Source: an uncultured delta proteobacterium (GTDB lineage: Bacteria > Desulfobacterota > Binatia > UBA9968). Taken from it: a stretch of 64,000 bases of DNA. Positions within the stretch are counted from its first letter, which is position 1; every line of letters starts with the position of its first letter. Of this stretch, positions 7,298-32,124 are shown in pieces. The translations under genes were made by a program, and so were the position numbers. The notes below the pieces were generated by a model that saw only the letters and a list, made by a program, of their open reading frames with translations, searched no databases and was not told the origin of the DNA. The DNA lies in the NCBI GenBank assembly GCA_963745835.1, contig CAVUZH010000015.1, positions 1-64,000 of the forward strand, read 5' to 3'.

Positions 7298-7660
7298 GGG
7301 GTCTACTTCCAAGATCGAAACGGGCATATTCTCGAACCGATCACGCGACCCTACGCAGCGGCGGCACGACGGCGGCTCGACCGCACCCGTTGCTCGCGTC
7401 AACCGGGAACCACGCGCCTGAAACCGGGCACAATGATCAGACCGTGAGAGATGACAGCATTCACCTGGCGACCGCAGAACGGCGCGATCAGTGATCCGCA
7501 TGAACGCTTCATGAGCGAAAATAACCTTCTCTCAAAGTACAACGGGTTTCTTGACGAAACTTTCGGTAACGAAAGGGAAATTGTACCAAGCGTCGATCCC
7601 GCCTTCGAGTGGGCGCACCCTGGTGATTCCTTTGGGTCGCAGCAGTAGCGCCACACGGGT
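7298..7660. repeat. Degenerate copy of about 22910-23277 (VOC gene 3' end, spacer, DedA-rhodanese 3' end)
   Basis: Colinear similarity, e.g. TCTACTTCCAAGATC, CAGACCGTGAGAGATGA, CCAAGCGTCGATCCCGCCTTCGAG, GCGCACCCTGGTGATTCCTTTGG. Confidence 0.9.
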
Positions 7661-20632: not shown

Positions 20633-20735
20633 GAGCGGGCAAACCCTGGTTATTCCTTTGGCTCGCAGCAGCAGCGCCACCCGGGCGCTGGTCGCTTCGT
20701 TGGGTCACGAACAGTAGAGAACGACGTCGCGATCC
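20633..20735 (-). repeat. Partial copy of the rhodanese UGA/SECIS segment (23226-23328)
   Basis: Near-identical. Reads DRDVVLYCS-UGA-PNEATSARVALLLRAKGITRV with UGA at 20705-20707. Confidence 0.9.
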
Positions 20736-23144: not shown

Positions 23145-24494
23145 TCAAAGTTCAACGGGTTTCTTGACAAGGCTTTCGGTAACGAAAGGGAAATTGTCCG
23201 CGAGCCAAGCGTCGATCCCGCCTTCGAGCGGGCGCACCCTGGTGATTCCTTTGGCTCGCAGCAGCAGCGCCACCCGGGCGCTGGTCGCTTCGTTGGGTCA
23301 CGAGCAGTAGAGAACGACATCGCGATCCCGGGGAATCTCTCTGTGGCGCTCTTCGATCTCTTCCATAGCTATTCGAAGCGCGCCCGGGATCATCTGCGGA
23401 AACGCCTCGATATCCATGGGCTGGCGCAAGTCCACGATTGAAATGTTTTCTTTGGCCGTGAGTTTGTCCATCAGCTCTTTCGGCGTGATGCGCGCAATTC
23501 GCAGCCGGCGCAGAAAGCGTCGGCGCTGGATGAACTTCCACAAAACATAAGCTGCCAAACCTCCGGCCAGGACTGCGACCAGCCAACCGCCCCAGCGCAG
23601 CGCGATCTGTTCGAGTTGATCGCCGAGAATCAATCCCAAGCCCGTGACGGTGACGACCCAGAGGAGTCCGCCCAGGGAGTCGAAGATAAGGAAACGTCGC
23701 ACCGGCATGCGAAAGATTCCCGCCAGAGACGGTGCCGCGGTATTCAGGCCGGGTATGAATTTGGCAACGAGCAAAGAACGAACGCCGTGCCGGCTGAAAA
23801 GGTTCTCAGTCCGCCGCACGCATGAGTCCGGTTCGAGAGAAATGCGGCACAATAGCTTCAGTATGCGGCCGCCGCGGTAACGGCCCAGAAAGTACCAGAA
23901 CAGGTCAGCCAAAATAACCGCGATGAACGCCAAGGCCAGCGCGAGCGTCAAATTCATTTTGCCGGCACGGGCGAGCGCCCCGGCCGCGATCAACAGAGGA
24001 GCAGCCGGGATAGGCAGACCCAGCTGTTCGAGCAGCACCCACCCGAACAGTACTGCGTAGCCGTGCCTAATCAGGAAGTCGGCCGCTTGTTCCAGGCTCA
24101 AATCCCGGGTCGCCCCGGGCAACACGCTCGCAAAAAAGAAGCTAAGGACAGTCAATATCAGCGCCGCAATCGCCGATTCGACATAGATCCAACGAGCCTG
24201 GGAACGGAGTCGTTTGTCGACACTTTCATCTCCGACCGGCTCTACGGTGCCGTTCATCTTGCGCGCGCCGCGCGCCGCAAAAGCGACTCAGGTTTTTTTG
24301 CGAGCCTGGGAAAGAGCGAGGGTTCCCATCCAGAACGGCAGAAATAGCGCCGCGTACCATCCGCGGCTTACATCTGCATGCGCGAAAATAACAGCCAGGA
24401 CGACGCCCAGGGCGAGCATGGCGACACCCATGAGCAGGCGCTTACGGATCTCCTTCGGCCCGATATTGGCGAGCTCTGCTTTTGCGCCGTTCAT
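23145..24494 (-). CDS. Candidate double selenoprotein: membrane domain (KKT-U-V) + DedA/VTT + rhodanese (C-S-U-P-N-E), 449 aa
   Basis: One frame: 68 aa, UGA 24288-24290, VAFAARGARK, 319 aa, UGA 23298-23300, then 50 aa PNEATSARVALLL...RPLEGGIDAW..., stop 23145-23147. DedA motifs EQLGLPIP and AKFIPG. DedA-rhodanese identity is secure; Sec decoding is inferred. Confidence 0.8.
23260..23289 (-). promoter_or_regulatory. SECIS-like hairpin after UGA 23298-23300
   Basis: Upper stem CAGCGCC/GGCGCUG with loop CGGGU after a 21-nt spacer from UGA; lower stem AGCG/UGCU. Confidence 0.7.
24257..24282 (-). promoter_or_regulatory. SECIS-like hairpin after UGA 24288-24290
   Basis: UUUUGCG-G-CGCG / loop CGG / CGCG-CGCAAGA; loop follows a 17-nt spacer from UGA and has G at its second position. 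Confidence 0.6.
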
Positions 24495-24589
24495 CGAAAA
24501 GCACCGGTACTTTTGTTCATTGTTTCGATCTCCGCTCAGGTTTCACCCTTAATAGCCGACATTCGTACATCCGGCTAGAGTGTGCTGAT

Positions 24590-24705
24590 GCCGTGGCGCG
24601 TTCTGGGAGGACCAATATCACCCTACGGCTATCGAAGCCGATGATCATCTGCATCAGTGCGTTGTCTATGTCGTTTTGCACATGGCGCCCGCCGGAGTGA
24701 TCGAG
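24590..24705 (+). pseudogene. Internal fragment of a RAYT-like transposase
   Basis: RGAFWEDQYHPTAIEADDHLHQCVVYVVLHMAPAGVIE. Confidence 0.65.
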
Positions 24706-31830: not shown

Positions 31831-31906
31831 TAATTAGGTCTCAGATTCGTGTCACGACGATTGCTGTCAATTGTCAAGGACAATAACGGAGCCTTCTCTC
31901 AGACGA

Positions 31907-32124
31907 CAACGGTTTCTTGACAAGGCTTTCGGTAATGAAAGGGAAATTGTCGGCGAGCAAGCGTCGATCCCGCCGTCGAGCGGGCGCACCCTGGTGATTC
32001 CTTTGGCTCGCAGCAGCAGCACCACCCGGGCGCTGGTCGCTTCGTTGGGTCACGAGCAGTAGAGAACGACGTGGCGCTCTTCGATCTCTTCCATGGCTAT
32101 ACGAAGCGCACCTGGAATCATCTG
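31907..32124 (-). repeat. Diverged partial copy of the DedA-rhodanese 3' end
   Basis: Colinear with about 23153-23396, with an internal deletion. UGA retained at 32050-32052; several synonymous differences. Confidence 0.9.

Follow-up and report, generated by a model that had tools for sequence, protein, structure and literature searches.

Fusions of a DedA membrane domain to a rhodanese domain are known but unexplained. We have analysed a gene in which such a fusion is preceded by a further membrane domain and which we read as encoding a double selenoprotein, with selenocysteine (Sec) predicted at two in-frame UGA codons. The gene lies on the minus strand of a 64,000-nucleotide stretch of DNA, referred to below as the window, which comprises positions 1 to 64,000 of contig CAVUZH010000015.1 in the genome assembly (GCA_963745835.1) of an uncultured bacterium of the Binatia. 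Described DedA-rhodanese fusions belong to the COG0586 branch, among them PA1209 of Pseudomonas aeruginosa (PMC12893004), and show the same order of DedA followed by rhodanese. These described examples are Cys proteins, and both the meaning of the fusion and its link to undecaprenyl phosphate are called 'unclear' (PMC10127716). The gene in the window resembles 78 Cys-form DedA-rhodanese homologues (47–59% identity), with which it has the motifs Y-C-S-C-P-N-E and C-R-I-S-L-E-P-D-S-C in common. It differs from the described fusions in two respects: the second Cys of the rhodanese loop is replaced by a predicted Sec, and an additional N-terminal domain is present.

The rhodanese half can also be compared with catalogued selenoproteins. 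The 119 prokaryotic selenoprotein families in Table 1 of PMC13188914 include a C-x-U rhodanese (NF041203, rhodanese_LYCAU, 'form 3') and TsoB (NF045694). NF041203 is the best NCBIfam match of the whole protein (E = 2.8e-23, 82 bits), at a score below the family cut-off of 115, and the C-x-U motif is present. As in that family, an L-Y-C-x-U loop lies within a single rhodanese domain and Sec pairs with Cys among the homologues; unlike there, the rhodanese stands at the C-terminus of a protein that crosses the membrane several times and has a second predicted Sec elsewhere. The second of our two sites is the known C-x-U rhodanese selenoprotein type, here fused to DedA. TsoB is alike in kind only, as it combines a rhodanese with a membrane thiol-handling part and has two Sec residues, but its motif is UxxxxU within one loop, its membrane part is DsbD-like, and NF045694 returned no match at E ≤ 1. 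YgaP of Escherichia coli (PF11127) is likewise a rhodanese tethered to the inner membrane by a small helical domain with a conserved Cys. Its domain order, however, is the reverse, its membrane domain has two helices instead of three, and the N-terminal domain of our protein gave no PF11127 match.

Neither a DedA/VTT entry nor one resembling the N-terminal domain is present among the 119 families of PMC13188914 Table 1, and the accessible part of a 2022 review (PMC9312934) yielded no DedA entry. Searches of the full-text literature returned no DedA/VTT selenoprotein among the titles listed and nothing on selenocysteine in Binatia, although the supplementary tables of the surveys may hold either family. 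A preliminary description of this locus, made from the DNA letters alone, had stated that rhodanese-type selenoproteins exist, which NF041203 in the same table bears out, and had known of no description of the whole architecture. That judgement stands, within the literature searched, for the N-terminal domain and for the triple fusion and falls for the rhodanese half, which is of the catalogued C-x-U type (NF041203; PMC13188914). As far as searched (Pfam, NCBIfam, review tables and full-text literature), the family of the N-terminal domain, its Sec form and the triple fusion are new.

The preliminary description saw one frame of 449 codons interrupted solely by two UGAs. Both were confirmed at the positions it gave: read from 24494 to 23145 on the minus strand, the frame contains exactly two internal stops, both TGA, at codons 69 (UGA1) and 399 (UGA2). 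We consider it highly probable, at roughly 85%, that the whole frame makes up a single gene, which encodes an inner-membrane protein of 449 residues and in which both internal UGAs are Sec codons directed by the hairpins that follow them. Its identity as a double selenoprotein is, as a prediction, well supported. An ordinary listing of open reading frames (ORFs) breaks the frame into three pieces of 68, 319 and 42 residues, the middle one beginning at Met80 (ATG 24255-24257), which is the start chosen by gene callers. Read through, the protein consists of an N-terminal three-helix membrane domain, a DedA/VTT domain and a rhodanese domain, in this order. The DedA assignment (Pfam VTT_dom) scores 63.5 bits in the read-through protein and 70.6 bits in the 319-residue piece, above the cut-off of 33.9. 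The rhodanese domain scores 52.2 bits (cut-off 22.2) and covers profile positions 1–101 of 102 across UGA2, whereas the 319-residue piece alone reaches only position 69. The claim that the 50 residues past UGA2 complete the rhodanese fold is thereby upheld, since the profile is filled only when the TGA is crossed.

Comparison with 41 related genomes identified full-length orthologues with both TGAs in four relatives, G005 (90% identity), G010 (87%), G018 (87%) and G024 (80%), and pieces of the gene at contig ends in two further genomes. Nothing concluded here rests on G018, whose genome is unpublished. Scanning metagenomes with residues 1–125 returned 80 loci with 79–90% identity, and codon 69 is TGA in all 80. 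When these loci are combined with five genome orthologues, both TGAs are in frame in 54 of the 85 sequences, with Y-C-[SAT]-U-P-N-E at the second; among the other 31, 29 contigs end too early and two are frame-broken. The 45 complete genes differ at about 20% of synonymous sites, and each has TGA at codons 69 and 399, never a sense codon or another stop. At the level of sequence, the constancy of TGA at codon 69 in 80/80 loci and at both codons in 45/45 genes is far beyond chance. The final stop is also TGA in 44 of the 45 genes, and TAG in one.

The preliminary description stood or fell with conservation continuing past the UGAs, and purifying selection does persist beyond both. Across the 45 genes the ratio of nonsynonymous to synonymous substitution rates (dN/dS) is 0.43 for residues 1–68, 0.31 for 70–125, 0.23 for 126–330, 0.13 for 331–398 and 0.26 for 400–449, with similar dS in all five segments. 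Nucleotide identity, averaged over pairs of genes, is 0.93 for the 120 nt past UGA2 and 0.32 for the 120 nt past the third TGA, so that conservation runs through both internal TGAs and ends with the true stop.

The genome holds what is needed for Sec decoding, the absence of which would have told against the preliminary description. Its assembly (25 contigs, 97.1% complete, 9.33% contamination) contains a tRNA-Sec (74.2 bits; called SeC(tca) by ARAGORN), and selA, selB and selD, scoring 609, 394 and 383 bits, lie side by side on contig 22. selA scores above its cut-off in 39 of the 41 relatives, and all genomes in which the present gene was found in a TGA form are among the 39; Sec decoding is therefore a trait of the lineage and not of a contaminant contig. 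The selD gene (G000:C22:69235-70161), directly after selA and selB, has an in-frame TGA of its own and corresponds to the Sec form of selenophosphate synthetase. Matches to single-domain rhodaneses with one in-frame TGA are numerous in the related genomes (for example G000:C4:25649-25942), and the lineage seems, from these gene predictions, to be rich in rhodanese-type selenoproteins.

Each UGA is followed by a GC hairpin whose loop begins CGG, with spacers of 17 and 21 nt, just as first described. With the U of each UGA numbered 1, G16–G20 of hairpin 1 pair with C26–C30 around the loop C21 G22 G23 C24 G25, and A19–C24 of hairpin 2 pair with G30–U35 around C25 G26 G27 G28 U29. Both hairpins begin 13–16 nt past the UGA, within the coding sequence, and have stems of 5–7 bp. 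They thus stand just 3' of the UGA with a G early in the loop, which is the pattern of a bacterial selenocysteine insertion sequence (SECIS). The fdhF-type element has in common with them a hairpin 13–16 nt past the UGA in coding sequence and a G in the first two loop positions; the differences are the short stems of 5–7 bp and the lack of an Rfam match, and a role of SelB is here a prediction. The consensus of Zhang and Gladyshev used in bSECISearch reportedly provides the reference for such comparisons, and we take G22 and G23 of hairpin 1 to lie at the place of the essential loop G of fdhF.

All five pairs of hairpin 1 are kept in 41 of 41 distinct sequences, among them two stand-alone Sec forms of the N-terminal domain with a protein identity of about 42%. 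Within the loop, G22 and G23 are invariant and positions 21, 24 and 25 vary; the third-codon positions just upstream (12 and 15) vary freely. An earlier register of this helix (13–14/29–30 plus 16–20/24–28, with a bulge at 15) was replaced by 16–20/26–30, which also fits the two stand-alone forms; the (GC)n run permits both registers, and a slipped pairing is possible. When synonymous variation was computed for the 45 genes in about 450 overlapping nine-codon windows, the gene-wide minimum fell on residues 74–82 (observed/expected 0.10), that is, on hairpin 1. The nine codons 398–406, past UGA2, are among the six lowest at 0.23. Another trough of synonymous variation (0.20) covers codons 379–388 (I-E-E-R-H-x-E-I-P; about 23331-23360), 11–20 codons upstream of UGA2. 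Among species-representative genomes, all six pairs of hairpin 2 form in 47 of 49 UGA genes, drawn from several phyla, compared with 4 of 28 Cys genes. Its 17-mer occurs in only six distinct versions in the 49 UGA genes, while neighbouring third positions are variable, and in 28 versions in the 28 Cys genes, where the residue encoded at the loop also changes (Val to Thr, Met or Leu). These counts overstate independence, because the genes compared are related.

The N-terminal domain links the gene to a family of stand-alone membrane proteins with a median length of 123 residues. In its fused form, N-I-G-P-K-E-x-R-K-R precedes two helices, after which come Q-A-R-K-K-T-U-V-x-x-A-A-R-G, a short β-hairpin and a long third helix; the family consensus is N-I-G-P-x-x-R-R-x-R, two helices, F-Q-A-R-x-x-T-C-V-x-L-A-A-R-G-x-R-N-x-D-x-G-x-E and the third helix. 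An exhaustive search of cluster representatives returned 595 relatives at E ≤ 0.001. We aligned 129 of the 150 listed relatives with the query (130 rows) and left out 21, namely stubs of the 68-residue type, pieces starting past the UGA, other partial matches and one 1184-residue multi-repeat protein. The position of Sec69 holds Cys in 124 of the 129 homologues, which is the Cys/UGA pairing, rather than Trp, that a Sec codon leads one to expect. A second Cys, absent from the fused protein, stands 1–4 residues before N-I-G in 78 of the 129. Two stand-alone members, L032 (117 residues) and L202 (123 residues), are themselves Sec forms, with the same TGA and hairpin followed by about 50 more codons to their own stop; in the genome of L202 (G444), the DedA-rhodanese protein is encoded elsewhere.

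Public databases show how these genes are treated by annotation. With residues 1–125 as the query, 663 database clusters (90% identity) were found, and 117 of the best 120 are ORFs of exactly 68 residues; two of the other three stop at the UGA1 position with longer N-termini, and one reads Leu. The best 120 matches to the whole protein are pieces of 318–333 residues lying between the two UGAs and named 'DedA' or 'VTT domain-containing protein'. The triple fusion was seen only in relatives labelled Candidatus Binatia or similar.

At the second site, a search with residues 390–449 retrieved full-length DedA-rhodanese fusions of about 320 residues in metagenome-assembled genomes labelled Nitrospirota, Acidobacteria, Verrucomicrobia and Binatia. 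Seventy-eight homologues were taken from the 120 listed, selected without view of site 399. Cys397 is present in all 78 and Cys at position 399 in 77, so that Cys pairs with the UGA here as well and the C-x-C-P-N-E motif ascribed to DedA-rhodanese fusions is indeed general among them. Species-representative genomes contain at least 596 DedA-rhodanese loci. For the best 80 of these, the codon at site 399 is TGA in 49 and TGC or TGT in 28, the motif not being found in three; the Sec share is a rough figure, because the search used two patterns, of which one was biased towards Cys forms. Predicted Sec-bearing DedA-rhodanese genes are widespread.

Table 1. Coordinates of the gene, its predicted Sec codons and associated features in the window
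Feature	Coordinates	Strand	Remarks
Whole gene	23145..24494	-	Single frame, 449 sense codons and TGA stop
UGA1, Sec69 (predicted)	24288..24290	-	Context QARKKT-U-VAFAARG
UGA2, Sec399 (predicted)	23298..23300	-	Context VVLYCS-U-PNEATSA
True stop codon TGA	23145..23147	-	Identity collapse begins only beyond this codon
N-terminal domain, residues 1-125	24120..24494	-	Alignment to stand-alone family; helices from AlphaFold2 model
DedA/VTT domain (PF09335), residues 162-287	23634..24011	-	Pfam
Cys pair C216...C225 (C-R-I-S-L-E-P-D-S-C)	23820..23849	-	Invariant in 79-row alignment
Rhodanese domain (PF00581), residues 337-432; loop Y-C397-S-U399-P-N-E-A-T-S	23199..23486	-	Pfam, Foldseek
SECIS-like hairpin 1	24261..24275	-	Helix +16..+20 / +26..+30; loop with invariant G22 G23
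SECIS-like hairpin 2	23266..23282	-	Helix +19..+24 / +30..+35; loop C-G-(G/U)-G-U
Conserved leader, about 90 nt before ATG	24495..24600	-	68 distinct upstream regions aligned

An AlphaFold2 model of the single chain, computed from 150 aligned sequences, is confident, with a mean predicted local distance difference test value of 88.8 and a predicted template modelling score of 0.71. It places helices at residues 13–40 and 44–66, a short helix (70–74) directly past Sec69, a β-hairpin (77–86) and a long helix (90–128), followed by the DedA helices and the rhodanese fold. A Foldseek search of solved structures matched the rhodanese part only, with 15 rhodanese matches at E ≤ 0.001, among them YgaP (PDB codes 5hbo and 2mrm). 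In the alignment to 6mxv, which has no gap, the catalytic Cys is matched by position 399, whereas the alignments to 3tp9 and 5ve3, with a two-residue gap, match it to Cys397. The spacing to the next helix and to the G-G motif, which needs no gap, makes Sec399 the favoured candidate for the nucleophile, with 3tp9 and 5ve3 pointing to Cys397.

The whole protein contains only five Cys or Sec residues (69, 216, 225, 397 and 399), all of them conserved. From the distribution of Lys and Arg (positive-inside rule), the N-terminus, the loops 63–102 and 204–237 and the rhodanese domain should be cytoplasmic, and on this topology all five would lie at the inner face of the membrane. C216 and C225 are invariant in an alignment of 79 DedA-rhodanese rows, and the insert that contains them, C-R-I-S-L-E-P-D-S-C, is specific to these fusions; canonical DedA paralogues are without it. 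A further difference concerns a pair of arginines. Five canonical DedA paralogues from related genomes have the Arg pair R-F-x-P-x-x-R, in place of which our protein has K245 and N251 (A-K-F-I-P-G-L-N); DedA-rhodanese proteins generally read A-K-F-x-P-G-L-(N/S). We infer from PMC10127716 that these columns correspond to Arg130 and Arg136 of E. coli YghB. That source describes the two arginines of the second re-entrant helix as essential and as probably binding the phosphate of undecaprenyl phosphate. With the NCBIfam equivalogs for UptA/DedA the scores are 65.8 and 49.5 bits, where 250 and 300 would be required, which leaves the protein outside the undecaprenyl-phosphate flippase families. The canonical paralogues, too, have DedA/UptA models as best NCBIfam matches, at scores below the cut-offs.

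No Pfam or NCBIfam family matched the N-terminal domain in the query or in the members L202 and L203. PF11127, the YgaP-like transmembrane family, gave no match at E ≤ 1 for the query, L202 or L203 and weak matches in 13 of the 130 family rows (best E = 0.0011). The names of ten homologues offered nothing beyond 'hypothetical protein', the Atlas neighbours of the homologue P0254 are unannotated clusters only, and a search of the genome contigs with P0254 returned no match. A profile search of solved structures with the domain gave nothing significant and did not retrieve YgaP. The family was found in none of 400 other genomes of the window's phylum and in one of 301 genomes of a second phylum, there in the Cys form. 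Beside the stand-alone Sec gene of G444 lies an ORF (L202 449-1400, plus strand) that resembles a tyrosine recombinase, or phage-type integrase, by its motifs, and on the other side lies a PLD/HKD-like ORF. This stand-alone copy may, judging from these neighbours, be located in mobile DNA.

The leader upstream of the gene contains the inverted repeat AGCCGG-N11-TCGGCT, conserved in 68 distinct orthologous loci. It has no Rfam match and no clear Shine-Dalgarno sequence by the ATG, and might, judging by its sequence pattern, act as an operator or form a leader RNA. In the window a short ORF begins upstream of the ATG and overlaps it; this ORF was rejected, as it is not kept in the orthologue consensus, and a scan for promoters and terminators gave nothing above shuffles. 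Four runs labelled as metatranscriptomes yielded contigs that match parts of the gene; UGA2 is spanned by a contig of 223 nt without differences and UGA1 by one of 204 nt with 17 differences. These contigs are compatible with transcription, and also with DNA carry-over. A TauE/SafE sulfite-exporter-family gene adjoins the gene in L102 (4044-4778), and the ORF coordinates of L105 suggest the same; a DoxX-family gene adjoins it in L108 and L113 (1759-2258). Both families have been linked to sulfur chemistry, and neither is conserved across the loci. Four degenerate partial copies of the last 100–230 nt of the gene, at 85–95% identity and with internal deletions and frame breaks, occur at window positions 7438-7659, 20633-20735 and 31894-32124 (all minus strand) and at G000:C20:52933-53165. 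All are intergenic and on the same strand; three of the four include the TGA and hairpin 2, and one runs about 100 nt beyond the stop. Duplication, or repeated recombination at the 3' end of the gene, may have left them behind.

Several observations weigh against two Sec codons directed by hairpins. Site 1 is G, G, D, S and W in the five homologues of 129 that do not have Cys, and Leu in P0002, the 92-residue ORF already mentioned, which comes from a single 760-nt contig; site 399 is Ser in one of 78. Compared with shuffled sequences, the folding energies of the two hairpin regions are unremarkable (z = 0.57 and -0.18), a measure that is uninformative alone because the gene is G+C-rich. The arms of helix 1 never vary and so offer no covariation, and helix 2 has one compensatory U-A pair, equalled by 141 of 500 shuffles. 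Rfam holds no relevant match for either hairpin region and no covariance model for these stems, and RNAalifold added nothing around the two sites. If the TGAs were real stops, the locus would be a decayed gene or three small genes, as it is annotated publicly; gene callers split it in this way everywhere, and four degenerate partial copies of its 3' end occur in the same genome. Yet a decaying gene would hardly keep both TGAs in every complete copy at such synonymous divergence, hold dN/dS under 0.45 in every segment, have homologues with Cys at both sites and lose its identity only past the third TGA, and we regard this explanation as barely conceivable. Nearly as hard to credit is a decoding of one or both UGAs as something other than Sec, for instance by a near-cognate tRNA for Trp or Cys. 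Nothing specific speaks in its favour, the genome has the full Sec machinery, the hairpins stand at bacterial SECIS spacing with hairpin 2 tied to UGA and not to Cys codons, and UGA cannot be a general sense codon, because 44 of the 45 genes terminate with it. Somewhat more plausible, though still improbable, is that UGA2 alone encodes Sec, so that a membrane peptide of 68 residues ends at UGA1 and a second gene in the same frame, for a DedA-rhodanese selenoprotein, starts at Met80. Gene finders do call the 319-residue ORF from this ATG, DedA-rhodanese proteins lack the N-terminal domain in most lineages, and, as termination always competes with Sec insertion in bacterial decoding, some 68-residue product is likely to be made anyway. 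Residues 70–125, however, correspond by homology to the C-terminal half of the stand-alone proteins, third helix included, so that the N-terminal domain is complete only if UGA1 is read. In addition, none of the 45 complete genes has a stop on the way from codon 69 to the DedA domain, L032 and L202 continue for about 50 codons past the same TGA and hairpin, no stretch of the gene is under stronger synonymous constraint than hairpin 1, and no purine run of Shine-Dalgarno type is seen before Met80.

For the double selenoprotein thus preferred, we propose a tentative mechanism. SelA, SelB, SelD and tRNA-Sec would decode both UGAs, each directed by its short G+C hairpin, and Sec69 would come to lie just past the second helix of the three-helix membrane domain. 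At the membrane, the DedA part would hold or pass on a species of sulfur, of selenium or of a soft metal(loid); without the phosphate-binding arginines it would handle a different substrate, probably a small anionic or soft-metal one. Sec399 and Cys397 of the rhodanese could take up or hand on an adduct of the selenosulfide or persulfide type, and the loop of C216 and C225, together with Sec69 tethered at the membrane, would provide further positions for relaying or resolving it. A chalcogen relay at the membrane face in this form is a hypothesis that we hold to be possible but doubtful. The same caution applies to its fuller version, in which the N-terminal domain represents a new small three-helix family with an invariant Cys at the cytoplasmic surface and the fusion assembles a relay of five chalcogens (two Sec and three Cys) coupled to an arginine-less transporter of the DedA type. 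Counting against a relay, neither the 20 ORFs examined in the window nor the 48 examined at 18 orthologous loci include a conserved gene partner, and the genome bin has an estimated contamination of 9.33%. The N-domain fusion occurs in six of the 80 DedA-rhodanese loci, all close relatives of the window gene, and no N-domain gene lies within 4 kb of the other 74. Among ten other genomes holding DedA-rhodanese, one has an N-domain gene and nine have none at all, while G011 has the N-terminal domain and no DedA-rhodanese orthologue. An obligatory partnership of the two parts is weakened by these counts and by the unconserved neighbours. Alternatively, with both UGAs still read through, the five Cys and Sec residues might form a soft-metal or metalloid site, serving uptake, export or sensing under stress of the Hg, As, Te or chromate type. 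The second Cys before N-I-G in 78 of 129 homologues would make a Cys pair at the cytoplasmic face, which presumably resembles that of small mercury transporters. NF033833, a rhodanese family of chromate resistance, matches at 45.9 bits, a score that is at the same time far under its cut-off of 120, and metal-resistance genes are absent from the vicinity of the fusion gene, both in the window and at the 18 orthologous loci. Sec forms of a putative mercuric transport protein, of metal-binding proteins and of cation ATPases are listed in PMC13188914, and DedA has been linked to selenite resistance and to indium extrusion, going by the reference list of PMC10127716 and the title of PMC8679861. Taken as a whole, we think a metal site unlikely, while giving it serious weight.

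If the double selenoprotein is real, its N-terminal domain seems to represent a selenoprotein family absent from the 119 families of Table 1 in PMC13188914, from Pfam and from NCBIfam. The protein would also be of a rare type, since polytopic membrane selenoproteins are few and those with two Sec residues in different domains rarer still. The Sec form of the N-terminal domain would be common in soil and rhizosphere data, where the 663 clusters arise; with 117 of the best 120 called as 68-residue fragments, counts of the selenoproteome would therefore be too low and hundreds of database entries truncated. The fusion would mark the N-terminal domain and DedA-rhodanese as functional partners in this lineage, and the reactive Sec, the family-specific Cys pair and the lost arginines would point away from the flipping of lipid carriers and towards chalcogen or soft-metal chemistry. 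Should the five-chalcogen relay in turn prove true, this would be the first DedA-family protein with a sulfur, selenium or metalloid substrate in place of a lipid, and it would provide a molecular handle for the long-noted link between DedA and selenite.

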